From IMG/VR virus record IMGVR_UViG_3300031555_001562: a DNA stretch of 64,000 nucleotides; one strand, written 5' to 3'. Positions within the stretch are counted from its first letter, which is position 1. Every line of letters starts with the position of its first letter. Shown here one piece after another: positions 3,964-64,000 of the stretch. The DNA comes from a virus (Duplodnaviria; Caudoviricetes). Below the pieces are notes generated by a model, which was not told where the DNA came from, made no database searches, and saw nothing but the letters and a program-made list of their open reading frames with translations. The translations under genes were made by a program, and so were the position numbers.

Positions 3964-3966
3964 CGC

Positions 3967-4524
3967 TTAGTCCTCGAAGAGATTCGTTGGAGCATCCTGA
4001 TATTCGTCACCAAATTCAAGATACTCAAAGTCCACAACTTCATAGCCCAGGCTCTCAAGGATGGCTGCATTAGGGAACTTTCTAACGTACTGCTTGTACT
4101 TTTTGACCCAAGTATTATAGTTTCCTCTGTGATCTGCGATCAGGTTCTCAGTGATTGCAAGCTCCTTCATGAGTTCCTTATAGTTCTCATCACTCTTCAG
4201 CTCAGGATAAGCTTCTGCAACCGCATTAATCATAGTCTGGATTTCGCCGGAAACAGCGTCGGAAGAACTGCCTCTGGCCTCAATGACTGCCATCAGAGTA
4301 TTGTACTCGTGTTCGTCATAAGCCTTCACGCAGTCAACCAGATTAGGAATAAGATCTGCTCTCCGCTTTTCCTGAACGCTAATATCAGACTTAGCCGTTC
4401 CGATCTGCTCTTCCAGAGAAATAGCCTTATTCTGTACCCCCTGAACGATAAAAGTCCAGAGCAGTGCAACTGCGAGAATGATTGCAACGACGATCAGGAT
4501 AAGCTTGATACTTACTTTGTTCAT
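3967..4524 (-). CDS. lemA: LemA family protein
   Basis: N-terminal TM helix, RRADLIPNLV, EAYPELKS and RKFP motifs. Confidence 0.9.
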   Translation of the reverse strand: MNKVSIKLILIVVAIILAVALLWTFIVQGVQNKAISLEEQIGTAKSDISVQEKRRADLIPNLVDCVKAYDEHEYNTLMAVIEARGSSSDAVSGEIQTMINAVAEAYPELKSDENYKELMKELAITENLIADHRGNYNTWVKKYKQYVRKFPNAAILESLGYEVVDFEYLEFGDEYQDAPTNLFED

Positions 4525-4911
4525 TTCATTCACTCTCCACAAATTTCAGATAGATTGGTTTTGGGTTCAACATTGCCCCTGTTTCAGTTTCATACTGAAT
4601 GATCTTTGGTGCGATTTCAGCGTCTAACTCTTTTCTGCTCATTCTCTGATCGACAATAATAACGTGCGATTCTTTGCCCTTGGGTCTGTCTGCAATGAAT
4701 TCAAACACGCTACCATTGTTGAAAAGGAACTTCAGACTTGTCTCTGCATTAACCCATTCCGCAAGAATAAGATAGCTTTGCAGTTCATCAATGGAATTGC
4801 GAACAGCTTCGCAGCTCTTTTTATCTTTGAGGTACACCGTGACGATGTACCCCGGAAGATTAATGCATCGCTTCAGAAAACGTGAAATCTTGCTGCTGGT
4901 TTCTTCGTTCA

Positions 4912-22249: not shown

Positions 22250-24361
22250 TTAGAACTTGATTCTCATAATTCTTTCGGTCTGACCCTTAACCTTAACGAC
22301 CAGATCGTTTCTCTTAGTGGAGCTGAAGCCTAGGCCGGACAGCTGATCTTCGACAGATTCAACAGCCATCTTACCGCCCAGAGCCTCAAAGACTCTCTTG
22401 TGCTGAACCAGCTCATTCTTCAGGAACTCGTTATAGAATCCGTTGGGATTTTCGGGATTCACGCAATCCTTCAGCATGAACATGTAGTGCTTGTGACCGA
22501 TGCCAGTCTGTTCATCCCAGTAGTTAGGAGAGAACATGACGACGGACACAGGGACGAACTGGTTGGTTTTCAGATTCCAGATATCAATGGGAGTCGTGTC
22601 ACATTCCATCATTTCCAGAATCTTGAACACGCCGTTCTTCAGTTCCAGCTTTGCAACAGTGACCCACTCCTTGTTTGCAAGGGGCTTTTCACGAACAAAC
22701 TGATAAACCTCACCGTTAAAGGCAAGCTCTGCCTTGAAACCACCATTGGTAGGAGTACGATGCCGCCAGTTATGAATCTTGAATGTGTAAATGCCATCTC
22801 TCAGCTTATCCATAGAGGGGAACGTAGTGTTCTCAACGGGAATGTAGCCAGCAGGAGCGGCAGCGGTATAGTCAACGTCCTGAATGCCACCAGAAGAAAC
22901 GTGTCTTCTGTGGTTCCAACCGACACGCTCACCGTTACCATAGTTATCATGAATCTCTCTGCCAGACTTATCATGACATTCAGGCTGATTGGAACCAGGC
23001 ATGAACACATGCAGATCCATAAGGGAAGCGTTACGCATACCGTCATAGTTCCAGCTGTGGGAGAATCTGAGTACACCATCTGTTCTGCCACCAGCTGCCT
23101 GTACTCTCTGGGTAATATCGCTGTCAGTGATGTTGCCAGAGTATGCCCAGGAGAAACCGTTATCCCACTTGAACATAGTAGGAGCGTCGGGATTCTTAGG
23201 AGCAATCAGAGAAACCATATTGGAAGCATGTCTGTTTTCCAGATATACTTCAACAGTCTTTGCGCTCGGCAAGACATCAGAAACGAACTTCTCAATGGAG
23301 ATTTCTTCGACTCGGCTGAACTTCTTTGCGGAGCTGGAAACCTGAGAAAGCATTTCATCGAACACGTCCATTCCTCCAGTAATCCGCTTTGCGGCATCTC
23401 TGTTAGAGAAAAGGATGTTGTTTACGTTGATGTCGTTCAGGGTTGCGAAACGTCTGCCAAGAGATTCCATGTAACCCAGAGCAGAGATGGTCTTCTTTGC
23501 ATCCTCCAGCATCTTCTTGGTGAAGATTGCCTTGGGACGCTTGTAGTTGGCAGGAGCAACGATCTTTTCATACTTCTTCACCGCAATATCCAGGTCTTCA
23601 CCATTGCTGATATCGATCAGCAGAGTACCGATACTGTGATTGCGGATTTTACCGATTGCCTCGCCAGCTGCCTTTGCATTCTCCCATGCGAAGTTGCTCT
23701 TTTCTTCATCGGGGAGCTTGTCGAAAGCACGCTTGTACTGGAGGAACTTGGTCAGAACTGCTTTCCATTCGGAGCCACGATACAGGGTGTTGGAAGCAAT
23801 CAGTTCCAGGACAGTCATGACCGCATCCTCGGTAATCTCGGTCAGTGAACGGTTGAACACGTTTCTCACATCTCTGAGAGAACCCTGGATATCACCGATA
23901 GATCTGCCGGAACGATCAACGAACTTGTCAGGAATGTTCAGGTAGAAATGATCCCACTTGATAGACTTAACGCCATCGATTCGCTCCCAGTTGGAGTCAA
24001 CGCCGACGTAATTCTCCTTGATGACGAAGAAATCCTTGACTGCTCGTTCTTTCAGGTAGGCATCCAGAGCATTGATAACAGTCTGGTAGGTTTCATCCCC
24101 CGTAGTGAAGTCCCACATGGTACGAACCTTATTGCCGCTGATAACAACAACATGACCGATGGCCTTGATGAAGTGTCTGCAACAGCTGCAATCATGTTCT
24201 CTGCGCTCCCGGAAGACTTCGTTGGTTCCACTGGGGAAGCTGTCGAGATACAGGTTCCAGAACTCGTCCTTATCGACAGTGACTTCAAACAGAGAATCGG
24301 CATTCTTTACCATCTCTGCGAAGTTTCTCTGGAACACCGCCTTGAATTCAGAAAAATTCAT
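22250..24361 (-). CDS. Large hypothetical phage protein (703 aa)
   Basis: Long ORF with HDCSCCRHF metal-binding motif and C-terminal SPNYW and QLSGLGFS segments; function unknown. Confidence 0.75.
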   Translation of the reverse strand: MNFSEFKAVFQRNFAEMVKNADSLFEVTVDKDEFWNLYLDSFPSGTNEVFRERREHDCSCCRHFIKAIGHVVVISGNKVRTMWDFTTGDETYQTVINALDAYLKERAVKDFFVIKENYVGVDSNWERIDGVKSIKWDHFYLNIPDKFVDRSGRSIGDIQGSLRDVRNVFNRSLTEITEDAVMTVLELIASNTLYRGSEWKAVLTKFLQYKRAFDKLPDEEKSNFAWENAKAAGEAIGKIRNHSIGTLLIDISNGEDLDIAVKKYEKIVAPANYKRPKAIFTKKMLEDAKKTISALGYMESLGRRFATLNDINVNNILFSNRDAAKRITGGMDVFDEMLSQVSSSAKKFSRVEEISIEKFVSDVLPSAKTVEVYLENRHASNMVSLIAPKNPDAPTMFKWDNGFSWAYSGNITDSDITQRVQAAGGRTDGVLRFSHSWNYDGMRNASLMDLHVFMPGSNQPECHDKSGREIHDNYGNGERVGWNHRRHVSSGGIQDVDYTAAAPAGYIPVENTTFPSMDKLRDGIYTFKIHNWRHRTPTNGGFKAELAFNGEVYQFVREKPLANKEWVTVAKLELKNGVFKILEMMECDTTPIDIWNLKTNQFVPVSVVMFSPNYWDEQTGIGHKHYMFMLKDCVNPENPNGFYNEFLKNELVQHKRVFEALGGKMAVESVEDQLSGLGFSSTKRNDLVVKVKGQTERIMRIKF

Positions 24362-25860: not shown

Positions 25861-28092
25861 TTAGATCAACTGACCCATGAAATAGTCGCAGTCAAGCGCA
25901 GTAACGATCTGACAATCCTTCGGCAGCTCAACGGTATGTTTATGCCCGGTAGCCTGATCCTGAATCTCAACATCGACAATCGGCTTCTCCGTGTCGTTGC
26001 TGAAGATTACATCAGCCTCTTCTCTGCTGGATACGATATTGCCTCTGGCCTTAGCGTTCAGCATAATCAGATCATACAGGTTGGGCTTATTCAGGTTCAC
26101 CATCGCATAACAAGTTGCGATAACGTTGTTCATGTTACTTTCCAGATTGATACCACCATAATGGCTACCAACGGAATTCATGGACAGATTCATATCGCAC
26201 CAGACGAACTTGCGCTCGTAGATATCGAAGATCACGGGGATCGCAACGGTGCTTTCTGCGTTCAGATCGATCTTCATCTCCACAGTGGAAGGTTCGAAGA
26301 TCTCGCCGGAGTTGACATCCTCACGCTCCATCCAACCAAAGCGGCAGTTTGGTATCTTGCCGAAATTGATATCACAGTAGCTATACACCTGGAACACAAT
26401 GTATCTTGCATCCAGATCATTTGCACGTTCGATGTCGATATCGATAAATTCAGCAGCACCAGCACCATCAGGTATTCCACCGTTTACAATGTCACCAGAA
26501 TGACACATATTAAACTTGTGGGAGCGCAGATTAGTATAGGAAACATGTTCCATATATCCCCAGTTTGCATCAAAGACGGTTGCGGACAAATCAATGTCTA
26601 CACTATCAGTCCAATCGTCTTCGCCAACATTCGTCCACCAGATAAATGCACGAACTGCGGTTGCGGCATCATTGACGGGAAGCTTGCTTCCACGAACAAC
26701 GATCTTGTTGGACTTGCTTGTGCTTCTCTGGCTGAAAGGCACGAGATAGTTCTTCATGCACTCGTCAATATAGACGTTGCCCATGAACTCACGTTCCTTA
26801 TACTGGCTCATCAGAGCATTGTCGCAGATCTTAACGATAGCATCACAATACTTCTGGTCAATGCCAGGAAGCTCGTTTTTCACATGCATAGCACGTGCCA
26901 GATTGCCCTTGGGGAAGAACACTCTGATAGGCGGCAGATTGTTGCGGTGGATGAAATGCTGTCTGACTTGCAAAAGAACATTGGTGGAAACATTTTCAGC
27001 GATGTTGTTGAAGCAGTTCACCACATAATTCTTGTTGTCAGAATCACGCAGAACCTTATCCAGCTGCCGTGCGAAGTCGCCAGGTCTGTACATCAGCAGA
27101 TCAGAAGCCAGCTTCATGTCGCCTCTCTTGATTGCACTCTGGATCTGTCCAGGCAAGAACATGGGCTTAGTGCCGTTGCGGAGATTGTCAAATGCCTTAT
27201 TGACATTTACATATCTCTTGCTCTTGTAAGTACCAGGATGCACAATCTCACCCACACGAATCCACTCGTACTGATAACGATACATATCCTCTAGGATATC
27301 ACCGCAGCCAGCAAGCAGATCCATTACCATGCGGCGCTCACAGCGTCTCATATGCTTGAATTGTGTTGTGCTTGCCAGACTGATATCGCCGCCGGAAATA
27401 GCCACAACGAATCTCAAAACATCAGTTGCAGTCTTGAAGTACTTCTGGATTGCCCCCGAATTCTTGATCGCTGCCTTATTTGCGATGATCTTTGCGACCA
27501 AAGCCACATTTTCCTTCAGAGGAATCTCATCTGGCAGATAATTGTAGAAATCTGCGTAGTTTTCTACGATTTTCTCAACGTCCTCCCGATCCTGGGGTGA
27601 AATAGACGTTTTGCTGCCCAAAATGTTCTGGAAAATGCCGAAAACATCGGTAACTTGCCCCAAAGATAAAACAGTCATTTTATCGGCATCAAACAGGGGC
27701 ATGCGCAGATCTTTTTCGTACTCAGGCATCAGAGTGCCGGAAGTTACGTAATGCACGATGGCATTGAAGAACAGCTCAATGTCGGATGCTTCCATGACTT
27801 GCTGAGGGAAGTTGGGATACATAGGATTGTACTCAACATCTGCTCCGACGAGCGCCTTCAGCTTAGGCAGAAGATCCTTGTAGAACTCTTCGATGTCAGG
27901 CTTGGTATATGTAAACAGAACATCCAAAACGTCACTGGAAAACACGAATCCAAGGGATGCAATGTTCTTCATCATGGCGGCGATCATGGCCTTTTCAGTT
28001 CTGCCCACTGCATTTTCATTCTGGTTCTTTGCGATGGTCAGCTTATGCTTTCTACGCAGCAGAACCTCGTCGATAGTATTGGTATAAGACAT
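25861..28092 (-). CDS. 743-aa protein: large helical N-terminal region plus C-terminal TerD-like domain (possible Ro60/TROVE analogue)
   Basis: C-terminal DIDLSA...HSGDIVNG...GAAEFIDID is TerD-like; N-terminal PMYPNFPQQV, TATDVLR and RPGDFARQLD. The Ro-like role is an inference from the flanking RNAs. Confidence 0.7.
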   Translation of the reverse strand: MSYTNTIDEVLLRRKHKLTIAKNQNENAVGRTEKAMIAAMMKNIASLGFVFSSDVLDVLFTYTKPDIEEFYKDLLPKLKALVGADVEYNPMYPNFPQQVMEASDIELFFNAIVHYVTSGTLMPEYEKDLRMPLFDADKMTVLSLGQVTDVFGIFQNILGSKTSISPQDREDVEKIVENYADFYNYLPDEIPLKENVALVAKIIANKAAIKNSGAIQKYFKTATDVLRFVVAISGGDISLASTTQFKHMRRCERRMVMDLLAGCGDILEDMYRYQYEWIRVGEIVHPGTYKSKRYVNVNKAFDNLRNGTKPMFLPGQIQSAIKRGDMKLASDLLMYRPGDFARQLDKVLRDSDNKNYVVNCFNNIAENVSTNVLLQVRQHFIHRNNLPPIRVFFPKGNLARAMHVKNELPGIDQKYCDAIVKICDNALMSQYKEREFMGNVYIDECMKNYLVPFSQRSTSKSNKIVVRGSKLPVNDAATAVRAFIWWTNVGEDDWTDSVDIDLSATVFDANWGYMEHVSYTNLRSHKFNMCHSGDIVNGGIPDGAGAAEFIDIDIERANDLDARYIVFQVYSYCDINFGKIPNCRFGWMEREDVNSGEIFEPSTVEMKIDLNAESTVAIPVIFDIYERKFVWCDMNLSMNSVGSHYGGINLESNMNNVIATCYAMVNLNKPNLYDLIMLNAKARGNIVSSREEADVIFSNDTEKPIVDVEIQDQATGHKHTVELPKDCQIVTALDCDYFMGQLI

Positions 28093-32026: not shown

Positions 32027-32608
32027 TTATAAATATTTTTCGGAGAATTCTCTGTATGATCCAAACTCAGTCTTCCAGCCGGAAGCAATCTGAATGGGAT
32101 CCAGATCATGCATCTTACATACATGTGTGATATACTCACTGTCATACAGCTTCTTTCTGCGGCGGTTCACCTTCTTGACTTCCGCAAACACATCCGCACG
32201 AGAAACACCGTATTTCTTTTCGAGATACTTCGCCATATCGTTCTGGGAGTACTCAATGAACTGGCAGATAGGGCAGCATGCCTCTGGCATATCATACCTG
32301 ACATCATCTATGCCAAAGTATTCATACATGAGATCATCATCGTCCATAGCTTCCAGCTCTTCTTTTGAATGCATTTCGCTGGGATCCAGACCGTCCATGT
32401 TTGCCGCATAATACTCAAGAAGTGTATTGATAAAGTTCTCTCTGGGAACCTGAAGCATTTCACTTTCACAAATGGTATGACCATTCACACAGCGAATCAT
32501 TTCGGCTTCAGATAGAGACATTTCCCAACCACTCTCTACTGCGCCGCAGATGTCGCAGACAAAGCTTGAGCTACTGGAATTCGTCACAAAGTCTTTTCTG
32601 TATTTCAT
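32027..32608 (-). CDS. TNSSSSS-motif protein 5 (Cys-rich)
   Basis: Begins MKYRKDFVTNSSSSSFVCDICG; also CVNGHTIC and CPICQ. Confidence 0.8.
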   Translation of the reverse strand: MKYRKDFVTNSSSSSFVCDICGAVESGWEMSLSEAEMIRCVNGHTICESEMLQVPRENFINTLLEYYAANMDGLDPSEMHSKEELEAMDDDDLMYEYFGIDDVRYDMPEACCPICQFIEYSQNDMAKYLEKKYGVSRADVFAEVKKVNRRRKKLYDSEYITHVCKMHDLDPIQIASGWKTEFGSYREFSEKYL

Positions 32609-32617
32609 TGTATCACC

Positions 32618-32989
32618 TTAATCGCTGGATGATTGATAGATATCTTCCTTGAACTTTCCGGGGATATGCTCATAGAGCCACGCATCATCGCCCTCAGTAT
32701 CTCCGTCATTCGTCCATGAAATGAAAGAAGCGGCAAGATACTTTGCGGTGGTATCACTCTCGTCAATGCGATCCAGAACGCTACTTGCAATACAATCCAG
32801 GCCAATACACTCATCGAGATAGTCCTTTAATGCCTTTGCGCCCATAAGATACTCATCGAGCAGTCTTACACCATGTTTGCCATGCTCTTCTTTCATATAG
32901 TCAAGCAGCTCGTCACAATATGTAATATTCGCCACAACAATGTAGCTGGAACTACTTGAATTTGTTACAAAATCCTGCCTCAGTTTCAT
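32618..32989 (-). CDS. TNSSSSS-motif protein 4
   Basis: Begins MKLRQDFVTNSSSSSYIV. Confidence 0.8.
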   Translation of the reverse strand: MKLRQDFVTNSSSSSYIVVANITYCDELLDYMKEEHGKHGVRLLDEYLMGAKALKDYLDECIGLDCIASSVLDRIDESDTTAKYLAASFISWTNDGDTEGDDAWLYEHIPGKFKEDIYQSSSD

Positions 32990-33339
32990 CGATATACCTC
33001 GCCATAATCAAAAGTCAATTCATCAGGGCGAAGATCGATATTGTATTCCGTCTTTATGTCTTCTACGACTTTCTTTCTGAGATCAGTCAATGTGTGATCT
33101 TGCAGATCAGATTCATAAATTGGATAACCAACATAATTAACATCAGCGCATTCGCAAATATCAACCACGAGATTTCCCTTTAACGAAATCTGATCGTCAC
33201 CAACTTCATATGCATCACTTAATTTCTCTTTTGTAATGCCGTTTGCCAGCAAAATCAGTTCTTGCGTATTGCTGTCTACCTTTAGGCAAATGAAAGAACT
33301 GCTTCTTGAATTCGTCACATAGTCAGTACGTACTTTCAT
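32986..33339 (-). CDS. TNSSSSS-motif protein 3
   Basis: Begins MKVRTDYVTNSRSSSFIC. Confidence 0.8.
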   Translation of the reverse strand: MKVRTDYVTNSRSSSFICLKVDSNTQELILLANGITKEKLSDAYEVGDDQISLKGNLVVDICECADVNYVGYPIYESDLQDHTLTDLRKKVVEDIKTEYNIDLRPDELTFDYGEVYR

Positions 33340-33761
33340 TAGCCATTTCTCCCTGCGCCATAATCACACTGGATATCGGCAAAACCGTTTTCTTCAGTGA
33401 TTGCATCAATCACTTGCGTATCGAAGTCACTGTAGTCAACGTAATAATCAACTTCGCCATCTTCATCGCTGTAAAGATCTTCGCAATGCGAATGCATAAC
33501 AAATCTTGCATCCATATGCTCACGAATATAATCTTTACTAGGTGTAATATCTACACCAGCCCAATCGCATTCCAGCCAATTACGCCATCTGCCTTCACCA
33601 TGCTCAATGCTGGCAAGTGCTTCTTCTGCGGTATATACTTCGATTTTTGAAGAAAACTCATTCAATACCTTTGCGGCCTTGGACTCGTCTGCGATTCTGG
33701 CAAAACACACAATATAGCTGCTAGAGCTGCTATTGGTTACATAGTCTGTCCTAATCTTCAT
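33339..33761 (-). CDS. TNSSSSS-motif protein 2
   Basis: Begins MKIRTDYVTNSSSSSYIV. Confidence 0.8.
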   Translation of the reverse strand: MKIRTDYVTNSSSSSYIVCFARIADESKAAKVLNEFSSKIEVYTAEEALASIEHGEGRWRNWLECDWAGVDITPSKDYIREHMDARFVMHSHCEDLYSDEDGEVDYYVDYSDFDTQVIDAITEENGFADIQCDYGAGRNG

Positions 33762-33763
33762 TA

Positions 33764-34192
33764 TTACGCACCCTCAAGGATCACGAATCCATCGTTATCC
33801 TTTGCCATAGTCTTAATGAAGCTTTCCGGGCTGCAATCGGAATCACTTACACGCTTCCTCATAATAGCATATCCATCTGCAAGATACTTGCTGGCCTCTT
33901 CATACTCTCTGCGGTAATCTTCATCATCTTCGATGATCTCCTGCACGGTATGTTTCTTCCAACCGTATCTGTCGATGAAAAACTTGTCATACTCTTCTTG
34001 CGTAGTGAATACTTCTGCAACCTGAGTATCGCAATAGTCAACCGCATCAATGAGCGCTTCAATAAGTCTCGGATACAAATTGACAAAAGGATACTTTTTC
34101 ACAGTTTCTTCGTCAACCTCTACGTTTGTACGGTAGGCAATCACAAAGCTACTGCTTGAACTGTTGGTTACGAAATCGCTTCTTACTTTCAT
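33764..34192 (-). CDS. TNSSSSS-motif protein 1
   Basis: Begins MKVRSDFVTNSSSSSFVI. Confidence 0.8.
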   Translation of the reverse strand: MKVRSDFVTNSSSSSFVIAYRTNVEVDEETVKKYPFVNLYPRLIEALIDAVDYCDTQVAEVFTTQEEYDKFFIDRYGWKKHTVQEIIEDDEDYRREYEEASKYLADGYAIMRKRVSDSDCSPESFIKTMAKDNDGFVILEGA

Positions 34193-34201
34193 ATACTTTC
34201 C

Positions 34202-34843
34202 TTAACTTTCATACGGAGACGGTAAACTGTAATCCCAAATTTCATAATCACCACTGTAGTGATTTCTGAAATAGTTTACTTCTCCGTCACCTCTGAACCA
34301 CAAATAATCATCCGGTAAAACCCTTCCAACATCCGTATATCCGGACTTTTCTTTGCTCCACCGGATAAGTACATCTTCTGCCAGATCGTAAAGCTCTTCA
34401 GTTACTGGTGCAGAACTGTTCCATGCAAACTGATTTGGCTTTGTAGCTGCCGCATATATGCTCTTTGAATCGCCAGCATCAACACGATTTACAATTGTCC
34501 ATGCAACACATGCCTGTTGTGTAACGCTCTTAACACCACGACATTCTTCCCAAAGAACTTTCGCAACTACTATTACATCATCTTCAGTAAAGTAATATAC
34601 AATCTCCGGTTCGGTACATTCAGTTTCAACAATCACTTCCAGTTCCGGGGGTTCCGTTTCTGGTTCTGTAGTTTCTACTGGTTCCGTAACACATGTAGTT
34701 TCAGCTATAGTTTCTTCTGTGGGAACAGTCGTAGATTTTGGTGCTGTATATTGCGGATCATATGTATCAATAGCTGCAATACCAATCATCAATAATACAA
34801 TGGCAACGATCAGCATCAGATATATGTTATATTTGTCGCTCAA
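34202..34843 (-). CDS. Membrane-anchored SleB/Hydrolase_2-like cell wall hydrolase
   Basis: N-terminal TM helix, T/E/P-rich linker, AKVLWEECRG, VAWTIVNRV and PNQFAW motifs. Confidence 0.8.
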   Translation of the reverse strand: MSDKYNIYLMLIVAIVLLMIGIAAIDTYDPQYTAPKSTTVPTEETIAETTCVTEPVETTEPETEPPELEVIVETECTEPEIVYYFTEDDVIVVAKVLWEECRGVKSVTQQACVAWTIVNRVDAGDSKSIYAAATKPNQFAWNSSAPVTEELYDLAEDVLIRWSKEKSGYTDVGRVLPDDYLWFRGDGEVNYFRNHYSGDYEIWDYSLPSPYES

Positions 34844-35904
34844 ACCAAATCTTTCTCCTGTCTATTGCAGATAACGATGTCTCTACAAATAGGACATCCG
34901 CCAGCACAAGTCGCTCTGGAGGGGCAGGATGCACAAGAATATCTCAGAGAATTTCTGAACTTCTCAAACACTTCTCCATCCCAAGCTTCTTGGATGGTAT
35001 GATTCTTCAGACTGACAAAGTACTTCGGATCCTGATTGCCAAAAGAACATGGCATTGCATTCATACTCGCATCAATGTACATGCTGTGCCTTCCGCCCTC
35101 GCAATAATCCATGCTGTCCAGATTGATCTTACTTGTAAAGTTCACGATACCAGAGCAAGAGCAGCTGTCGAAGCCGATCTTGTGGTGGAACTTACCTGTG
35201 TCAATCAGTTCGAAGAACTCTTTGACTTTGGGATTATCATAAGTCAATATGTTCTCCATCTTGCCCAGGCCAATAGGCTTATACAGCAAGAAAACCACCG
35301 CATTAATACCCATCTTGAAGCTATTTGTTCTCAACTTCTGGATTGCATCATCAATGGTTTTCGCACTCAATACATAGTGAATATTCGTCTTTACACCAGC
35401 ATCCAGAAGCATATCAATTGCTCCATTGGTATAAGGTGCAAAGTGTTCACTCACTGCAATTGCACCACAGTACTTCTTACAGACCTCAGCCTTTTCCTTT
35501 GTCATAGCAATACCAGAGGTTGTAAAGTTAGGAATGATACCATGCTCTCTGGTTGCCTTTAGAATCTCTTCAAAATTTTCATGCGTGTCCACATCCCCCG
35601 CACCGCCCAGGGCGACCTGAAGAACCTTACCTTTGCACTGTTCCATAATACTCAGGTAGTTCTCAAGACTCATATTGGAGCCGGTTCGATCAATGGCTTT
35701 CTGGTAGCAGTCAACGTTGCACTTGTGCGCACATACGCATCGCTCCATAATACCGATATCGATCAGTGAAGGGAAGCATCGCATAAAAGGATCGATACCA
35801 GTATCTTTACCTTCAGCATCGATCACACCGCTGCGAACATAAAATCCTGTATCCGGATTGAAAAGTTCAACAAAACGGTTCTTTTTGTCAATGAATCTAA
35901 TCAC
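34840..35904 (-). CDS. Radical SAM protein with SPASM domain
   Basis: CVCAHKCNVDCYQ cluster motif (CxxxCxxxC spacing), ALGGAGD, FTTSG; C-terminal CEGG...PCSF...CASC...CAGGC. Confidence 0.9.
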   Translation of the reverse strand: MIRFIDKKNRFVELFNPDTGFYVRSGVIDAEGKDTGIDPFMRCFPSLIDIGIMERCVCAHKCNVDCYQKAIDRTGSNMSLENYLSIMEQCKGKVLQVALGGAGDVDTHENFEEILKATREHGIIPNFTTSGIAMTKEKAEVCKKYCGAIAVSEHFAPYTNGAIDMLLDAGVKTNIHYVLSAKTIDDAIQKLRTNSFKMGINAVVFLLYKPIGLGKMENILTYDNPKVKEFFELIDTGKFHHKIGFDSCSCSGIVNFTSKINLDSMDYCEGGRHSMYIDASMNAMPCSFGNQDPKYFVSLKNHTIQEAWDGEVFEKFRNSLRYSCASCPSRATCAGGCPICRDIVICNRQEKDLV

Positions 35905-36221: not shown

Positions 36222-37277
36222 TTAGGATGCACGTATTCCATGATCTTCTCCTTCGTTTTCAAAGAGCGAGTCAACAAATTGATCCATGCTGCATATCAAC
36301 TTATAGCAGTTGCCGTGCGACGCATGATTCTTCCACGAACCATACTTTTCGTAGAATTTTTCTTTCGTCATCTTACCGCTCTTTACGAGCTTCGCATTTT
36401 TGCGTAAGCGTTTCTTGATCTGACGTTTGTTATCTCCGGTCAGCTTCCGGATGACCTTGCCATCTTCTGTGATGTATGTATGAAACCCTAAGAATCTAAT
36501 GCCTTTTCTTAGCGGAACAATCTCTGTCTTATCGTTCAAAGTCAGACACAAACCAGCTAAGTACTCTTCAATTTTCTTCAGACAATCTTTTAGATATTCT
36601 TTATCATCAGAAATCAGGTAGAAGTCATCCATGTATCTGCCGTAATACTCGCAGCCAAGATCCTCGGTGATGAAGTAATCAAGTCCGGTCAGATACATCA
36701 GTGCAAACACCTGGCTACTTTGATTGCCGAGCGGCAGACCATCTCCGTCCACACTATCAACAAACAAGTTGCAGATCCATTGAATATCTTCATCCGGGAA
36801 GTACACCCGGATAATTCTCTTCATAATATCGTGATTGATACTGTAAAAGAATTTTGTGATATCGCACTTGAGTATGTATCCTTCGCAGCCATGATTGTCA
36901 TAAAAATCAAGTAGATTTTCTGACAAGCGATCTAGGCCAAATAAGGTTCCTTTGCCTATTTGACCAGCATAGTTGTCGAGAAGAAAGATGTCTTTCATCT
37001 TCGGCAACAATACATAGTCACACAGGCAGTGTTGCAGAACCTTATCTCTAAAAGCGCCAGAAGTAATAAGCCTTTTCTTTGGTTCAGAAATAATAAACTG
37101 AGAATACTTAGATATCTCATATGTGTGTTCAATGAGTTGACGCTTCATCCTGTAAAGGTTTTCTAGCGCCAACACACTGAACTGGATTGCGCTTTTCTTC
37201 TTACCCTTGCCTCGCATTGAGACAGTGTAAGAGGCATACAGATTCTCAAAGTCTATTAGCTTCTGAAAATCTTCCAT
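36222..37277 (-). CDS. DGR reverse transcriptase
   Basis: RDKVLQH, KGTLFG, KCDITKFF, GLPLGNQSSQ (DGR SQ signature), RYMDD and FLGF motifs. Confidence 0.95.
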   Translation of the reverse strand: MEDFQKLIDFENLYASYTVSMRGKGKKKSAIQFSVLALENLYRMKRQLIEHTYEISKYSQFIISEPKKRLITSGAFRDKVLQHCLCDYVLLPKMKDIFLLDNYAGQIGKGTLFGLDRLSENLLDFYDNHGCEGYILKCDITKFFYSINHDIMKRIIRVYFPDEDIQWICNLFVDSVDGDGLPLGNQSSQVFALMYLTGLDYFITEDLGCEYYGRYMDDFYLISDDKEYLKDCLKKIEEYLAGLCLTLNDKTEIVPLRKGIRFLGFHTYITEDGKVIRKLTGDNKRQIKKRLRKNAKLVKSGKMTKEKFYEKYGSWKNHASHGNCYKLICSMDQFVDSLFENEGEDHGIRAS

Positions 37278-37392: not shown

Positions 37393-37474
37393 AGAACGGA
37401 CGGACACCGTTGCTCCAATCACAGTCATTCCAATTCAGAATGCCATTAGAGTTGACGTAGCAAACGTTGCCAGT
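37393..37474 (-). repeat. DGR template repeat (TR)
   Basis: 82-nt non-coding near-copy of VR1/VR2 between avd and RT; carries A on the coding strand at the variable positions. Confidence 0.93.
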
Positions 37475-37498
37475 TTCAGCGCATAACCTAAAGGCTTA

Positions 37499-37867
37499 TT
37501 AGGTCTTCTTCCGCCACGCAAGCGTCATATGTTTTATGTCGTATGCGAGGCCAGTCCATTGTTCGCTCATAGCGGCGCTTATTAACTTGGCATGCAAGCT
37601 GTATCTCACCAGGCTCAAGAATTTATTGCATTCCGTTATTGCTAAGGTTTGCTTTTCTATTCTTTTGGCTCTGTGTCCCTCTGAATCAGGAACATAGGAA
37701 TTTGCGTCCAGCAAATACCCATATATGTTCAAAGAGATCTCCTGAAGTTTATCTGTAATCCGCCGATACCTTACTGGATAGTGTTGGCGAATAGTAGTAA
37801 TATCAAAGACTGAAAAATACAGCTGCTCTGCCTTATTGCCTATTTCAAATCTTACTTCTTCACTCAT
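37499..37867 (-). CDS. avd: DGR accessory variability determinant (Avd, four-helix bundle)
   Basis: 122-aa helical protein (YPVRYR...LLDAN...LAW) between the target gene and TR. Confidence 0.85.
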   Translation of the reverse strand: MSEEVRFEIGNKAEQLYFSVFDITTIRQHYPVRYRRITDKLQEISLNIYGYLLDANSYVPDSEGHRAKRIEKQTLAITECNKFLSLVRYSLHAKLISAAMSEQWTGLAYDIKHMTLAWRKKT

Positions 37868-37875
37868 TTGTTATC

Positions 37876-38331
37876 TCACTCTACCAAGAGGGAAGAGTCG
37901 AGGATCAAGAACGGACGGACACCGTTGCCCCAACCACAGACATTCCAAAGCAGAATGCCATCAGAGCTGACGTAGCAAACGCTGCCAGTATAACCAGATA
38001 CCTCAGCGGTGACTCTGGTTGCAGTCCACCATGCTTCGCCCATTGCCTTCAGGAACTTCCGGTAACGGCGATACCGATCAGTAGTCAGAATGGACACGAA
38101 ACCCTCAACGGTCTTGATACCAGTGCCATCGTCTGCGGTCAGATCGACGGTATGACGGATGATATTCTCAGCACCCACCGACTTGACCATCTCGTTGTAG
38201 AAGTCATTGATACAGTAGCTGCGAACATCGCTGGTCTCATAGTCGCCGGTGGAACCATATTCCATACGCTTAACGAAATCCTTGGCAATTACTGCGGTTC
38301 CATGTTCGGTGTGTTCCAGGACAATGAACTC
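37876..38331 (-). pseudogene. DGR target gene 1, C-terminal 151 codons (DUF6273-like/CLec-fold), separated from its N-terminus by an inversion
   Basis: EFIVLEH...DLTADDG...WWTAT...GVRPFLIL; paralogous to 59463..60101. Confidence 0.85.
37908..37989 (-). repeat. DGR variable repeat VR1
   Basis: 82-nt alignment to TR with 8 mismatches, all at TR adenines. Confidence 0.93.
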
Positions 38332-38528
38332 ACCTGCTGAAGGCAAAAGATAAGGCAATCGAACTGGGTCTGATCGAGGGCGAACAGTTTGGCCTGATCT
38401 ATGATAACTGCATGACAGAGCTTGTTCCGGAAGAAGAAAATGGAACGACTCTGACTGGAATCTGGTTCTGTCCTTTACCTGATGAGGTTGCACACACAAT
38501 TAGTAAAAAATATCAGCTATATCGTTAA
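38331..38528 (+). pseudogene. pth2: Peptidyl-tRNA hydrolase Pth2, C-terminal half (inverted)
   Basis: HLLKAKDKAIELGL...IYDNCMTELVPEEENGTTLTGIWFCPLPDEVAHTISKKYQLYR*. Confidence 0.8.
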
Positions 38529-38533
38529 AGTAG

Positions 38534-38603
38534 ACGCAATATAGTTGTTGACAAAACGATTCAAGTGTGTTATAATACCCACAGTAAGACAACGCAACAA
38601 AGT
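38534..38603 (+). promoter_or_regulatory. sigmaA-type promoter of the DGR cassette, now pointing away from it
   Basis: TTGACA (38548-53), 17-nt spacer, TGtTATAAT (TATAAT at 38571-76); ACGCAA motifs on both sides. Confidence 0.85.
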
Positions 38604-38628
38604 AGAATATAACGCAAGGAGAATTTAT

Positions 38629-38780
38629 ATGGAGATCAAGGTTATCAACAATGTTCCCAATCTCAATGTCACCGTAAACCAGGCAGAAGACGGCAGCTTT
38701 GCTATCCTGCTGGCTGAAGACAAGAGAAAGGCGCTCGGTAGCGCCGAACTGGGATCCATCAAGAAGATCGGCAATCGTGA
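38629..38780 (+). pseudogene. DGR target gene 1, N-terminal 50 codons (inverted)
   Basis: AAGGAG RBS then MEIKVINNVP...LGSAELGSIKKIGNR; joins EFIVLEH upon re-inversion. Confidence 0.82.
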
Positions 38781-39019
38781 TTCTTGTTGCGTGCCTCACA
38801 GATTGTCTTCACAAACGATCCGTTGATATACTGCTCGAACATGTCTTTTTCAAACGACGCACGATATGTGTAATCATCAACAGATTCATCGGGAGGCCAT
38901 GAACTATTCCTGATATCGTTTGTCCAATATGCCTCCGCACAATGCGCTACCTGGGCAGCAAGCTTACCGGGAGACATATGTAGATCTTTGCGCATTATGA
39001 AAAGTCTTCTGTATCCCAT
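38777..39019 (-). pseudogene. pth2: Peptidyl-tRNA hydrolase Pth2, N-terminal half
   Basis: IMRKDLHMSPGKLAAQVAH is the Pth2 signature; homology ends at KTICEARNKNH. Confidence 0.88.
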
Positions 39020-39245: not shown

Positions 39246-40088
39246 TCATGGCTCACCAACAAAAACCAGATCCTCGACATACTTTCTCCCGTCTCCCTTG
39301 AAGATAGGAATCTTTTTATCGATAATCCATTTAGGACGTTTATCTTCGTCTCCCTGAACCTTTATGCAACAGCTGCCACGCTTTTGATGTACAGGGAAAT
39401 CGTTCCAGTTGATACCCTTTTCCAGCATAAGCATGTCTTGCATCTGGCTCTGGGACTTGTTTTGTAACATTCCATGTGAGAAATGCGCCTGAGCTACCAT
39501 TTCCACGGAATTTCTGGTTGCATCATTCTGCCGCCACAAAACACAGTTGCAGACTTCTTCCTTTGGAATGTTGAACACACGTGCATCGAACAGAGCGCCC
39601 TTCTCAGCCGCCTTCTTGTATGCCTCGTAGTATTTGCCATTGTCCTCTTCTGAGAATGTAATATGATATCCAATCTCAGTAAGATCAATGTCAGTATTGA
39701 ACTCATAGAAAGCATTCAGATTTGCAACAAAGAATCTGTTGAACGCAAATGTAGCCATCGACGCAGCAATACTGCACATCTTCTGGATGTTGTTATCAAA
39801 CCATGCGCAGCTGTTGAGTTTCTTGTAATCCACCAGAACAAGTGTGATTTCGTCGGACTGTGTATAGCCCAAAACGCAACCTTGAATATTTTCGCATAGA
39901 TACTTCGTGGTATCCTGCATGGTGGAGATCAGCACTTCATCAAAAGGTCTTTTGAAACCTCTTGTGAAAGTGTGGAATGCCTTACCATCCAGCCGGATGA
40001 TTACTGGCATTCTGGGTACGAGATATGTACGGGTGATATACTCGTACTTTTTCATGCGATCACCCAGCGCATCTCTTTTCTTTGCCAT
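39246..40088 (-). CDS. tRNA(His) guanylyltransferase Thg1-like protein
   Basis: RMKKYE, RLDGKAFHTFT, YTQSDEI, FDAR, WRQNDATRNS and KRG motifs. Confidence 0.93.
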   Translation of the reverse strand: MAKKRDALGDRMKKYEYITRTYLVPRMPVIIRLDGKAFHTFTRGFKRPFDEVLISTMQDTTKYLCENIQGCVLGYTQSDEITLVLVDYKKLNSCAWFDNNIQKMCSIAASMATFAFNRFFVANLNAFYEFNTDIDLTEIGYHITFSEEDNGKYYEAYKKAAEKGALFDARVFNIPKEEVCNCVLWRQNDATRNSVEMVAQAHFSHGMLQNKSQSQMQDMLMLEKGINWNDFPVHQKRGSCCIKVQGDEDKRPKWIIDKKIPIFKGDGRKYVEDLVFVGEP

Positions 40089-47536: not shown

Positions 47537-48487
47537 TTACTTCTTTAATTGATCGACCATTGCCATCAGCTGCGTAATTGCATCAACATGAGCCATCACG
47601 TCCACATTGTCCGCATTGGTTCTGCCAGCTTCATATGCAGCCTTGATGATATCTCTGAGATCATTGGCCTCAAGACTCAGGATAAAGCTATTGGACACAT
47701 CCTGATATTCTCTGTCACCAATGATATAGTCTTCGAAGAAGTCACCCATATCATCATAGTATTTATCGACCTTCTGCTTGGTTAAACCGATGTAGTGCTT
47801 GGTTGTTTTCACATCGGAATGGTTGAAGATAGTTTGCAGAATCTCCATGCTGTCATAATCGCCAGGGTGGAGCATTCTGTTCATCATGCCAAAAGTCTTT
47901 CTGGGGCTATGAGTTCCGACATTATATTCGATACCCAGATCAGCGGCAGCTTTCTTGACATTCTTGTAGTAACAACTCTCAGACATCACTCTGCCCTTGT
48001 AGTTACCGGAAAGCTGCATACAAATAGGAACGGAGTAGTTTTCCTTCGCAGGATCACATCCTGTTTCCTTGAGATACAGCTGGATCGCAGATCTGCATGC
48101 AGAATTAATCTTAGGATTTGCCAGCTTATCAGTCTTCTCTTCTGCGAATTCCAGAAGATTGACTCTGAGCTGCCCGGTGACGGGATTGAAGAAGTTCTCC
48201 CAAGTCAAACTCAGGGTATCTCCAACTCGTCTTGCCATGTTGCAACTCAGAACAAAGATCATGTAGCACAACCACTTCTCATTGTCACGGAAATAAGCAG
48301 TGATCTTCTTCATGTCTTCAATCTCAAGGTGGTAGACTTCAGACTTCTTGCCTTTCTGCTTGTTCTGACAGATCTTCTTAGGAGTACCATCCTTTTTCAG
48401 TTTCGGTTTGCTCTCAACGACTTGCAGCTTAATTGCCGGATCGGGATTACCAGCGCAATTGGCCTGAACCAGAGATAACACCGCCAT
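47537..48487 (-). CDS. Tyrosine recombinase/integrase
   Basis: ARRVGDTLSL (R), EEKT (K), THSPRKTFG (HxxR) and NHS...TKHYIG (H, Y); start taken at MAVLSL. Confidence 0.9.
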   Translation of the reverse strand: MAVLSLVQANCAGNPDPAIKLQVVESKPKLKKDGTPKKICQNKQKGKKSEVYHLEIEDMKKITAYFRDNEKWLCYMIFVLSCNMARRVGDTLSLTWENFFNPVTGQLRVNLLEFAEEKTDKLANPKINSACRSAIQLYLKETGCDPAKENYSVPICMQLSGNYKGRVMSESCYYKNVKKAAADLGIEYNVGTHSPRKTFGMMNRMLHPGDYDSMEILQTIFNHSDVKTTKHYIGLTKQKVDKYYDDMGDFFEDYIIGDREYQDVSNSFILSLEANDLRDIIKAAYEAGRTNADNVDVMAHVDAITQLMAMVDQLKK

Positions 48488-48509
48488 ACATTTCCCTCCA
48501 ATCTTTTGT

Positions 48510-48576
48510 GGTAAGTTGGTTACTACTTGGATTATACCATATCGTCCATTGTTTGTCAACAATTATTTTGTTGGGT
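48510..48576 (-). promoter_or_regulatory. sigmaA promoter with GTAA-N5-TTAC operator at +1
   Basis: TTGACA (48559-54), 17-nt spacer, TATAAT (48536-31); palindrome at 48511-23. Confidence 0.75.
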
Positions 48577-51254: not shown

Positions 51255-51339
51255 TGGATCCCCTCCGTTCCTAAGCATAGCGCCATAATTGGTAACTTAC
51301 TTACTACCAATATAAATGGCGCTATACCTATTTGTCAAG

Positions 51340-52533
51340 TTAATTCCGCATAGATTCGTACAGCTTTGCTACACGAGCGGAAACATTATAGGACGGATTA
51401 ACAGGGAGAATATAGGAATACAGATCTTCGCCGGACTTCATGGACAAAAGACCGATGTTGCATTCATTTGCACCAGTCTTGTTTTCAAGTTCCACTCTGA
51501 TATCATCCTTACCAAACAGTGCGGCAGAATCCATCAGGAACACAGGATTGATACAGAAGCAGAAATTCTCGGTGGTATCATCTGTCACGTCCAGCTGGTC
51601 AATGGAACTGTAATTTGCGGAGTTGATGGAACAGAAGACGCCATCTTCATTCTTGAAGATAATCAGGGGAATCTTCTCAATGATCTTACCCTTACGGAGT
51701 TCATTGTAATACTCCTTTGCAATGGTAGCAACATCGGAAGCTTTAACGGTAAAACCAAAGTCACGCTTTGCATTTCTCTTGATCTGCTCGATGTCCATGT
51801 ACTCACCAGGTTCCTGCAAACACCAGTATGTAAAACCATTGCCGGAGATCTTGATTATGCTGGAACTCTTCATTGCACCAACGGAAAGCTGTACCATGTC
51901 TTCAGACTTAGCATTGATGATTTTCTTCATACTCTGGAAAGAGTACCAGGGCAGAGTGAAATAACCTTTATCGGTGAACCAGTTGCCGCAGATCTTCTTA
52001 ATCGTAAAGCGGAATCCGTCAGTAGCAGCCATCCGCTGATGCTGGCAGTTGATATTGAAGCCGGTATACAGAGGTCTTACGGCATAGTCCTCGTGGCGCA
52101 TGCGGTCAGTAGCTACCATTGCGGACAGCAGTTCTTTCTCGGACATCTCGCATTTCAGCTCCATGTCACCATCAGGGAACTTAGGCCATACATCGTTTTC
52201 ATCGGCCTCATACATCGGAACAGCACGGTACTTCTTGTTACCCACAACAGAAAATTTGCCCCCGAAAGTATCGATGATAATCTTCCCGGTGAATGCGCTG
52301 ATCTTTGCAAGATCGTCCGTACCTACACGGATTTCACCACTTTCGATAACCTGAGCAGGAATACACACCTTGATAAACTGTTGCAGATTGGAAGCACTGA
52401 TGGTCGCATGATCGTCAGCAGCTTCAAACTTGATGGTACAAAGATCTTCCAGGTGGCTTTTTCTCGGAGCAACGGTCATGACCTTGCTCAGCGCATCGAA
52501 AAAATCCTTTCCGTTATTAATCGCAAACTTCAT
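51340..52533 (-). CDS. DNA polymerase III beta clamp-like protein
   Basis: 397 aa with ISASNL, AATDGFR, INPVFLMD and YILPV motifs; divergent DnaN pattern. Confidence 0.75.
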   Translation of the reverse strand: MKFAINNGKDFFDALSKVMTVAPRKSHLEDLCTIKFEAADDHATISASNLQQFIKVCIPAQVIESGEIRVGTDDLAKISAFTGKIIIDTFGGKFSVVGNKKYRAVPMYEADENDVWPKFPDGDMELKCEMSEKELLSAMVATDRMRHEDYAVRPLYTGFNINCQHQRMAATDGFRFTIKKICGNWFTDKGYFTLPWYSFQSMKKIINAKSEDMVQLSVGAMKSSSIIKISGNGFTYWCLQEPGEYMDIEQIKRNAKRDFGFTVKASDVATIAKEYYNELRKGKIIEKIPLIIFKNEDGVFCSINSANYSSIDQLDVTDDTTENFCFCINPVFLMDSAALFGKDDIRVELENKTGANECNIGLLSMKSGEDLYSYILPVNPSYNVSARVAKLYESMRN

Positions 52534-52729
52534 TCCTGTACCACCTTTCTCAGTTTCATGTATTCTTTCAGGGAAATGCCCATGCAGTTTGCCGCAACCT
52601 TCATTGCCGTCTTCTTATCTCCACGGCTACCAGGAATGGCTTCCTTACTACCAACCTTGTGGGCATACCACTGTCCGCCCTTTTCTTTCGATACTTCGTA
52701 TGTAATCTCCATTTGTTCCTCTCTTTCAA

Positions 52730-53359
52730 TTATTCTTCTTCAGGATCATCAAACATGCTCGTAAGCACTCTTGGTTTATATTCTCTTGTTTCTCCGAATT
52801 CCTTCAAATCCGCAATGTCTGTCTTCAGTTTTCTAAGACACGGCAACAAACCACTGGAAATAATCAGACTTGCAAATTCAAGTGCGTCTTTTGCTTCACG
52901 TCTGCGCTGACGAACTTCCTGCATCTGTTTGTATCTTTTGAAACCATTGATAACATTCTCATTGGTGAATTCCATCTTGTGAAGAATGTCCAATGTTTCC
53001 ATGTCACACTGTTTTACAATGCCACCGAAGTAACCGGGCAAAAACAGGAATTTGTCTGTGTTTTCAACGATCTGCTCATAGAATGCAATCATCTCATCAA
53101 GAGCCTGTTTAGCAGTTTCGGGAGTAAACTCGCTGCCATCACCGGAATATTCTTCAGCAAGGTTATCGGTATTGAGAATTTTTACTTCAGTCGGGCTAAC
53201 AGTTGGAAACATACCTGGGAAATTGTTATCCATGAAGTTCGTTGCTTTATCCAAGGTGATGAACTTCGTTGCATTTTTCAGGAGTGTTGACCAGCTGCCT
53301 TTGCCGCCTCTGCATTTCACATATCCACCGCTAGTGCAGTGGGAAATAACATATGACAT
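52730..53359 (-). CDS. Hypothetical coiled-coil phage protein, paralog of 45068..45718
   Basis: DILHKMEF...RQRRREAKD...EYKPRVL. Confidence 0.6.
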   Translation of the reverse strand: MSYVISHCTSGGYVKCRGGKGSWSTLLKNATKFITLDKATNFMDNNFPGMFPTVSPTEVKILNTDNLAEEYSGDGSEFTPETAKQALDEMIAFYEQIVENTDKFLFLPGYFGGIVKQCDMETLDILHKMEFTNENVINGFKRYKQMQEVRQRRREAKDALEFASLIISSGLLPCLRKLKTDIADLKEFGETREYKPRVLTSMFDDPEEE

Positions 53360-59462: not shown

Positions 59463-60101
59463 TCATTCCTCCGTATCGACAAGAGTAGAAGAGGAAAGAG
59501 TCAAAACCGGACGGACACCGTAGCCCCAATCACAGTCATCCCCATTCAGAATGCCACTAGAGTTGACGCAGCAAACGTGGCCAGTGTAGTCATTGCTGGG
59601 AGTGGAGAAGGGAGTGATGGTCAGCCAGGAGCATTCGTACTCGGACATGACACCCAGGATCTTGTGGTACTTTGCGTACTCAGCGGCGGTCAGCATGGAA
59701 ACCTTGTCAATGCACGTGCCGTAGTCATCCAGGCCATCCAGAGAAGTCAGGTCACGGTGCATGTCGATGATATTCTCAGCGCCGAACAGCTCACACATGT
59801 GCTGGTAGATCTCGCCGCTGTTCATACTGGTACGAATGGGACTCACTCGCCAGTCATTGTTCTCACCGAACTCATGGCGGTCATCCAGGAAGTCAGCCTT
59901 GATAACGAACACTTCGCCGTTGGGCTTCTTGTCCAGGACGATGAACTTCTCGCCGTTCTGGGTGAAAGTATCGCCGGAGTTCAGCGTGCCGACTTCGATC
60001 TTGCTGTGGAACAGGGTCTTGGGATCGACGTTACCGCAGTCGATGATGATCTTGTTGCCGCTGATGGTGAACTGTGCATTGTTGATAGTAAACTGATTCA
60101 T
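59463..60101 (-). CDS. DGR target gene 2 (DUF6273-like/CLec-fold), remote target
   Basis: KFIVLD...DLTSLDGLDDYG...WLTITP...GVRPVLTL; carries VR2. Confidence 0.88.
   Translation of the reverse strand: MNQFTINNAQFTISGNKIIIDCGNVDPKTLFHSKIEVGTLNSGDTFTQNGEKFIVLDKKPNGEVFVIKADFLDDRHEFGENNDWRVSPIRTSMNSGEIYQHMCELFGAENIIDMHRDLTSLDGLDDYGTCIDKVSMLTAAEYAKYHKILGVMSEYECSWLTITPFSTPSNDYTGHVCCVNSSGILNGDDCDWGYGVRPVLTLSSSTLVDTEE
59508..59585 (-). repeat. DGR variable repeat VR2
   Basis: 78-nt alignment to TR with 7 mismatches, 6 at TR adenines. Confidence 0.9.
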
Positions 60102-61364: not shown

Positions 61365-62712
61365 ACCTACTTCACCTCTTTCTTATTCGCCGTATTTCTT
61401 AATAATCTGACGGCATTCCTTCTGTGATTTACCCACCATCTCTCTGTTCATTGCGTTAAGCTCTTCTCCGGTAAACACATGATGATTTTTTGTGCAGCTG
61501 TCATAGAAAGACTTGCTAATCAGAATAGCACCGATTGCAATCAAAATGAGTAATGGCATGATGATCCTCCTTTACCGATCATTGTAAATCCTGTCCTGGC
61601 ATTCCAGAAAATAGGAGTCAACCACGACCATCTGCTTAGTAGTCAGAATGAACAGGCCGACCAGACCGACGGCAGCGCCGAAGATCTGCATGATCCTGGA
61701 AGCGATATAGCAACCCAGAATCAGGAAGAAAATACCGATGATGCCAACCACAGCGCCCAGAATACGCTGACGGTGGAAATATGTAGCACGGTTCTTGCGC
61801 TCCTTGGCTCTGCGGCTGTTGCGCCGCTGTTCCATCTTATCCTGGATGTTTGCGAACTCGTCATAGCTCATAACGGTCACGATGCCGTCATCCGTGTTGT
61901 TCATACCCTTGTAGCCGTAGCCCATTGTGTTGTCCTCCAATATTATATCTGAAAATTTTGTGTTTGTCTATTCAAAATTCAACCAATTCGTTCAGTTTTT
62001 CTAAAACGCATTTGTTGCAACAGGAAATGTCAATATCTTCTCCATTTCTTTGTTTGATCTTTGAATGATATTTTACACTTTTGTTTGTACCGCAGAAGTA
62101 ACATATTTTTGTACTTCTATCTTTGGCAGGAAATAGCTTAAACTTCATATTTTATACTCCCGTTTGTCATGCCGCTTTGTTAACTCTAACCTTGATTCGG
62201 AACATTCGCATTGCCATATCATATCCAATAGGTTTTTCATAATTTGCTCCGGTAACTTCACGGTGAGTCATATTAGAAAGAATTTCGACGGCTTGCATTT
62301 CAGCATAATTTGCTCCGCATGCGCTCAAGATCCACGTATATGCAGGATTTTGTTCTGTTTTGATAAAAGCTTCGACTTTATATTCTCTCTTCTTATTCAT
62401 GCATTGCCTCTTTGTTGCGTCTACTTTGAATGCTAAAAAATTATGCCACTAACCATCCTGAGAAAGCGTTCCATGAGATAGTGTACTTGCGACCGTCGAT
62501 CTTAACTTGCTTTACATAAGTTCCAGTGAAAATTTTCGTTTCATCACAGAATTCACCGAACAGTTTATACCAATAGTCGATGTTCTTATGCAGCTGGAAC
62601 AGAACATAATTTCGCATTTCGTTGTGATCCATATGAAAGCCTTTCATTATTAGCATTTTGGTTCATTTTTTCCACATATACTATAGTTATGGGGAGTGTT
62701 ACCTCCCCATAT

Positions 62713-63924: not shown

Positions 63925-64000
63925 TGATATTCATTCTCCTGTCAACTGCTGCCCGATCTCTGTTTCGTTGAGCATCTTACGGATTGCATCAGAGGCAGTA

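Follow-up and report, generated by a model that had tools for sequence, protein, structure and literature searches.

In a complete phage genome, a short island of plus-strand coding sequence interrupts a region whose genes lie on the minus strand, and two genes, pth2 and a DGR target gene, are broken at its edges. The island also carries the promoter that would be expected to serve the DGR. Is this a switch that turns the DGR on and off, a one-off mutation, or an artefact of amplification or assembly? We addressed the question in a window of 64,000 nucleotides, the whole stretch of DNA analysed here, which is taken in minus-strand orientation from an IMG/VR virus record of 163,674 bp, rated complete by CheckV. 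Around the island the gene order, all on the minus strand, is a NAD-salvage cluster, a Thg1-like gene (39246-40088), a gene for a 75-aa membrane protein, pth2 and the DGR cassette, such that the Thg1-like gene is upstream of the membrane-protein gene and pth2. The island itself spans positions 38330-38780 (451 bp, made up of a 443-bp unique core and a 4-nt core at each end). On its plus strand it holds the C-terminal 64 codons of Pth2, a promoter, an AAGGAG ribosome-binding site and codons 1-50 of the target gene, which we call target 1. A preliminary description, made from the letters of the window, had proposed that an inversion of about 450 bp cut pth2 and the DGR target gene and flipped the promoter. 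Our analysis bears this out, as the segment lies opposite to the order found in every relative that we examined.

The evidence for an inversion comes from related genomes, the comparison that the preliminary description had called for. A megablast search against a phage GenBank collection gave no match, and the informative relatives are metagenome contigs. In a distant relative, L005 (51-80% protein identity), the N- and C-terminal parts of pth2, the N- and C-terminal parts of the target gene, avd, the TR and the RT gene are collinear on one strand, and in 19 further metagenome relatives the two Pth2 halves are adjacent and collinear. A protein search with the N-terminal Pth2 fragment retrieved intact 145-aa Pth2 proteins at 97-100% identity. 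The contigs that encode them (L104-L113 and L125-L134) share 90-98% DNA identity with the window and carry an intact Pth2 (145 or 137 aa), an intact 201-aa target and an RT. In total, Pth2 is intact in 20 distant relatives and 22 close contigs, and the 201-aa target is intact wherever a contig reaches it. When L104 is aligned to the window by BLAST, the strand of the match changes exactly at 38330 and 38780. Re-inverting the segment turns the window into one collinear match to 12 un-inverted contigs of the same species at 94.8-98% nucleotide identity; nine relatives align over a single 8.4 kb (94.8-97% identity), and L127, L133, L104 and L108 align in shorter collinear pieces (up to 98%). Because the Pth2 halves are collinear in L005 and the 19 other relatives, and because the 12 same-species contigs align in one piece, we consider it settled that the segment is an inversion. 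The un-inverted order is present in all of the approximately 42 relatives, with a pth2-site core that is unlike the target-site core in each of them, and only the clone of the window is flipped; the inversion does not recur across lineages. L104 also differs from the window elsewhere: it is without approximately 2.96 kb (window 32271-35234), and its alignment jumps from window position 35235 to 32270. Comparison with L104 and L109 indicates that this gap takes away the greater part of a radical SAM/SPASM gene together with its downstream genes, and the 354-aa radical SAM/SPASM gene is kept in L125-L134.

Flipping positions 38330-38780 in silico restores both broken reading frames together. The predicted products of this operation, a 145-aa Pth2 and a 201-aa target, were both obtained, with the joints ...ARNKN-HLLKAK... 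and ...KKIGNR-EFIVLEH... in frame, and genes of the same lengths are called intact in un-inverted relatives. The restored Pth2 is 145 aa when read from the ATG at 39019 and 155 aa when read from 39049. In the window as it stands, the 5' fragment of pth2 occupies 38781-39019 on the minus strand (Pfam PTH2, E 2.4e-6) and is identical to residues 1-79 of the intact allele P0121. Its open reading frame runs on to 38759, giving a cut-short product of 86 aa (protein P0123) that is called on 14 contigs. The 3' fragment lies on the plus strand at 38334-38528, with 64 codons at 38334-38525, a stop at 38526-38528 and no start codon; it was recognized by tblastn against relatives, with which it shares 62-84% identity, and it is identical to residues 82-145 of P0121. 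The break, at residue 81, falls inside the PTH2 domain. Intact P0121 covers positions 4-115 of the 115-position profile (PF01981), the N-terminal fragment of the window covers positions 4-36 only, and a complete PF01981 domain is absent from the Pth2 of the inverted clone. By its domain content, pth2 in this clone is a broken member of the PTH2 peptidyl-tRNA hydrolase family.

The re-inverted Pth2 differs from P0121, the commonest intact allele, at one residue, the junction codon, where Gln81 has become His. Since the two proteins are otherwise identical, we take the event to be recent, as had been proposed. P0121 itself is found in 93 blocks of the collection, as against 14 contigs with the 86-aa form.

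The second broken gene, target 1, is divided in the same manner. Its first 50 codons are at 38629-38778 on the plus strand (74% identity to the N-terminus of the L005 target), in an open reading frame that runs to 38826 and would specify a 65-aa product. The remainder, from codon 51 to the stop, is at 37876-38329 on the minus strand; it matches Pfam DUF6273, includes VR1 (37908-38000), recognized from the VR1/TR repeat, and shares 42% identity with its paralog. When rejoined, the two parts match the 201-aa targets of relatives. In the inverted arrangement, the reading frame of the C-terminal part is open upstream only through antisense pth2 sequence, in which a Shine-Dalgarno sequence is not visible. 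Compared with nine intact relatives, the inverted clone alone carries the replacements D127G and E135D in this part of target 1 (37876-38329). They may be ordinary variation of the lineage or a sign that constraint was relaxed once the gene had been broken, and two replacements are too few to speak of decay. VR1 is the same in all contigs of the inverted clone, and among strains of the species both VR1 and VR2 have many differing positions.

Between the two gene ends, at 38548-38576 on the plus strand, lies the promoter. As the preliminary description had noted, it is a consensus promoter; its type is sigma-70 (TTGACA-17-TATAAT, 12/12 positions), and a TG extension makes it an extended -10 promoter. 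It is now directed away from the DGR cassette and faces, in antisense, pth2 and the genes for the small membrane protein and Thg1. Upstream of the target gene, the promoter is conserved in L104, L106-L108 and L005. In L109-L113 a 46-nt deletion, in the region equivalent to window 38540-38590, takes it out, and the target-avd-TR-RT cassette of these contigs is still intact.

Downstream of target 1, all on the minus strand, we find avd, the gene for the DGR accessory protein (37499-37867; its L125 ortholog has a match to PHROG 3206, annotated as 'Avd protein of DGR'), the template repeat or TR (37393-37485; a 93-nt TR/VR1 repeat in which VR1 departs from the TR at adenines of the TR, read on the gene strand) and the DGR reverse transcriptase (36222-37277; Pfam RVT_1, E 8e-14). 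The 212-aa paralog that had been noted earlier is a second, intact DGR target at 59463-60101 on the minus strand, 21 kb from the cassette, and its VR2 (approximately 59504-59596) matches the TR with mismatches at TR adenines save for one T-to-G difference. The region thus contains what defines a DGR: an RT, an Avd and TR/VR pairs with mismatches at TR adenines. In its RT, its Avd and its TR with two VRs showing adenine-specific mismatches, it is like phage DGRs of the BPP-1 type with one adjacent and one remote target (target-avd-TR-RT), and here the VRs are C-terminal in DUF6273 proteins. Unlike in DGRs of that type, the adjacent target of this clone is split and the promoter reversed. Between strains with 96-98% identity in the surrounding sequence, VR2 differs at 10-15 of its approximately 93 positions; read at the level of the clade, as variability between related strains, this pattern indicates that the clade is diversifying the second target. 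We also considered whether the DGR had a part in the inversion. No such part is evident, and we rejected the idea because the break, at codon 50, is a long way from VR1.

To learn how widely the inverted form occurs, we turn to the contigs of the same clone, which were gathered by exact-protein look-ups across many assemblies. Both junctions are spanned in the inverted form by five contigs from five JGI samples (L077, L080, L082, L083 and L136) at 99.5-100% identity to the window, and the right junction is also spanned by L079 and L135. The few differences between the clone contigs and the window are mostly at contig ends. The corresponding pattern of gene calls (an 86-aa Pth2, a 65-aa ORF on the opposite strand and a 205-aa ORF) appears in further JGI and ENA assemblies, and a second full-size contig of the clone, of approximately 163.9 kb, is among those that carry the 86-aa Pth2. 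The same junctions are present in at least 7 samples by DNA and in approximately 13 by gene pattern. The clone was traced to JGI samples 3300018878, 3300018494, 3300018475, 3300018495, 3300024268/69/72, 3300029705 and 3300032167, to the ENA ERZ272483xx series and to SRR7032251. These samples have neighboring accession numbers and probably stem from one or two related projects, possibly from a single source community, so the assemblies are independent as sequencing libraries and not as biological origins. Among the assembled contigs of the clone (n=14), only the inverted orientation is found, although un-inverted molecules may still make up a minority in these samples.

Two features of these contigs could be mistaken for other arrangements. 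After window position 38380, L079 continues into a 134-nt tail (L079:2139-2272), which we rejected as an alternative junction because it is unrelated, GC-rich sequence; it is most likely an assembly chimera. L135 stops at window position 38384, close to the L079 join at 38380, and there is probably a graph branch or a chimera in the assemblies of these two contigs. L078 was likewise rejected as a sign of mixed orientations: it ends 20 nt outside the right junction and has three third-codon-position differences, which points to a co-occurring related strain.

What kind of event, then, produced the inverted form? We favor a single, recent, non-programmed inversion that arose in one clone of a common phage species of approximately 164 kb and became fixed there, most likely through an exchange with a 4-nt stagger, and we give this reading a probability of roughly 85%. 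The preliminary description had left three options open: an amplification or assembly chimera, an ON/OFF switch and a one-off inactivation. A chimera would mean that the inversion is not present in phage DNA at all. The junctions share a repeat of only 4 bp, and multiple-displacement amplification typically produces inverted chimeras joined at short microhomologies. However, both reciprocal junctions are present, identical junctions recur across samples and across different pipelines (JGI, ENA k141), and a k-mer assembler cannot be misled by a 4-bp repeat. With identical junctions in many independent assemblies, this option is in practice excluded, and we grant it next to no credence. A programmed and reversible switch is an attractive idea: a phage or host recombinase would flip the segment and thereby toggle the target-avd-TR-RT cassette together with pth2. 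The sole consensus promoter of the region sits in the segment, the inversion is base-exact with zero net gain or loss, the genome encodes three tyrosine recombinases, and intragenic invertons are known in bacteria (PMC10028968). Invertons such as fimS, hin/hix and the Bacteroides promoters are like this locus in that a short segment bearing a promoter and gene ends is flipped exactly, reversing the promoter and changing coding sequence. They differ from it in having inverted repeats of approximately 10-30 bp that are conserved along with a recombinase, and in that both orientations coexist in a population. The intragenic invertons of bacteria, too, rely on recognizable inverted repeats (PMC10028968). 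In the window, the repeats are at chance level, the ancestral sites are unrelated, a single orientation is seen per lineage and a scar has been left. The junction repeat amounts to 4 perfect bp, with a best gapped match of 11/13, where an inverted repeat of approximately 10 bp or more would be expected, and we agree with the earlier judgment that 4 bp is too short for a programmed site. The gapped similarity reported for the flanks (ACAATGAACTCAC versus ACAA-GAA-TCAC) does exist but is not above chance, as 6.5% of random pairs of sites 451 bp apart score as high; in un-inverted L104, 95% of random site pairs outscore the two sites. The distribution of orientations also argues against a switch. 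Each of the 14 clone contigs has the inverted form and each relative the un-inverted one, and the ends of the clone contigs show no excess at the junctions, which would be expected if both orientations were common in a sample. The pth2 junction bears the Q81H scar, so that flipping back would not return the parental sequence, and a conservative, reversible site-specific system would leave no such scar. A designed switch, moreover, normally keeps its genes whole in both states. No serine recombinase is encoded in the phage genome, and hence no serine invertase. Altogether, a programmed switch finds no support here, and we judge it very improbable, while the one-off inactivation is supported.

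The three tyrosine recombinases (G000:C1:519-1088, 32672-33202 and 83592-84137, the last being window 47537-48562) are integrase-like by PHROGs; the nearest is approximately 9 kb from the segment and none is adjacent. Nothing ties any of the three to the segment, and this includes the one at 47537-48562, which had been put forward as a possible agent of the inversion. An exact-string scan of viral and metagenome contigs for the predicted un-inverted left junction gave no match. The observed junction string was likewise unmatched, meaning that near-identical records of the window are absent from the scanned set, and the negative for the un-inverted form carries little weight. A weaker form of the switch idea is that the flip is reversible at low frequency, in which case the clone might toggle DGR target 1, avd-TR-RT and pth2. 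Here the inversion event itself would have improved the inverted repeat at the junctions. Such a clone would represent phase variation newly arisen in a phage DGR, but we see very little prospect that it does.

The case for a non-programmed exchange can be made from the junctions themselves. Their sequences are as had been described: TCAC at 38330-38333 and GTGA at 38777-38780, both given on the plus strand. The left core is the reverse complement of the target-site core GTGA, and the right core stands in place of the pth2-site core, CCAA or CCAG, of all un-inverted relatives. The sequence of the pth2 site is AAGAAC-CAA/CAG-CTG (Asn-Gln-Leu) in 12/12 un-inverted loci of the species, and that of the target site is ATC-GTGA-GTTCAT in 11/11 of the loci that extend to it. 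The window has AAGAA-TCAC-GATTGCC at its right junction, read in the gene direction, and AATGAAC-TCAC-CTGCTG at its left junction, read on the plus strand. The four target-site nucleotides (GTGA/TCAC) are therefore at both junctions in inverted orientation, the four of the pth2 site (CCAR) are lost, and the flanks segregate cleanly. We enumerated by hand all positions at which a blunt break-and-join could have taken place, and for each of them two further substitutions have to be assumed; none is needed if the exchange had a 4-nt stagger and the target-site core was kept. With overlaps of 2 bp (serine-type) or of 6-8 bp (tyrosine-type), the two junctions can be arrived at only through additional changes, and we rejected these overlaps. 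By hand analysis, a template switch at the shared GAAC predicts an additional C at the right junction, and the window has no such C.

These observations are suggestive of a mechanism in which a site in pth2 and a site in DGR target gene 1, whose mutual resemblance is at chance level, would have been joined by a reciprocal break-and-join. With a stagger of 4 nt, the overlaps at the two junctions would come from the target site on one DNA strand and from the pth2 site on the other. The mismatched 4-nt heteroduplex would then be resolved by replication or repair, leaving the target-site core at both junctions. The enzyme may have been a type II topoisomerase such as host gyrase; type IIA topoisomerases cut with a 4-nt stagger. 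No type II topoisomerase gene is present in the phage genome, so a host enzyme must be assumed. By analogy, the scar pattern appears to resemble illegitimate recombination mediated by a type II topoisomerase, for which an exchange between non-homologous sites with a 4-nt stagger is characteristic, and such an exchange is what the junctions point to. For gyrase, a subunit-exchange model of illegitimate recombination has been published (Ikeda; discussed in PMC11164529). The likeness lies in a reciprocal exchange with no meaningful homology and no net loss or gain of bases, and the junction anatomy fits the model in that there is a 4-nt cut at each site and a mismatched overlap resolved to one parent at both junctions. 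Most of the cases on record are deletions, or joins between plasmid and lambda DNA, in E. coli; in contrast, the present one is a balanced 451-bp inversion in an uncultured phage, and its enzyme is a putative one.

An alternative route to the same junctions is that the pth2 site of this lineage already read AAT-CAC, and that the exchange took place within a pre-existing 4-bp inverted microhomology, TCAC/GTGA, either by illegitimate recombination over a short homology or by template switching during replication, and a staggered heteroduplex would not be involved. Microhomology-mediated rearrangements are common. His is the commonest residue at the junction position in the wider PTH2 family (84/114 homologs), and L005 has AAT-CAT at its pth2 site. 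Among close relatives, however, Q81 is present in 16/16 intact Pth2 alleles and CCAA or CCAG in 12/12 un-inverted loci. The lineage is 2-3% diverged overall and the rest of its Pth2 is identical, and by a rough estimate it is unlikely that two substitutions would fall in precisely these 4 nt, both toward the bases of the other site. We regard this route as unlikely, though less so than a switch, and retain the staggered exchange as the preferred reading of the scar.

The predicted consequences of the inversion concern two accessory genes. By their reading frames, both Pth2 and DGR target 1 are lost: pth2 is cut mid-way through its only annotated domain, and the C-terminal part of target 1 is deprived of the first 50 codons and of the ribosome-binding site. 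The 65-aa N-terminal product of target 1 is predicted to be made from the flipped promoter and ribosome-binding site, and the promoter is predicted to fire antisense over the N-terminal part of pth2, the membrane-protein gene and the Thg1 gene. The genes for avd and the RT, the TR and the second target are all intact in the inverted clone. Since L109-L113 are without the promoter and have yet kept the whole cassette, read-through from the upstream operon probably suffices for avd-TR-RT expression, and in the inverted clone the DGR may still be serving target 2.

We therefore read this locus best as a real, recent, lineage-specific inversion, in which a one-off illegitimate recombination, ordinary in kind, inactivated two accessory genes. 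Its value is mainly that of a clean negative, since the appealing idea of a "DGR promoter switch" gives way to a structural mutation of an ordinary sort. The clone is at the same time a natural double knockout of pth2 and the adjacent DGR target that can be compared with abundant intact siblings. Its persistence across many samples indicates that both genes are dispensable for propagation in that community. The scar, in which the 4-nt core of one site has ended up at both junctions, is a natural footprint of a rare kind and informs how illegitimate inversions arise in phage genomes.

The segment had also been called the only plus-strand coding island of the window, a claim that we checked in part. 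The window has very long plus-strand ORFs over minus-strand ORFs at 51316-52764, 62689-63927, 22400-23848, 25936-27294 and 3487-4602. None of these five had a Pfam match (0/5), and they look like antisense shadow ORFs. For two of the five the minus-strand partner was tested as well, and both partners are Pfam-positive, one being DnaN-like and the other Bro-N.
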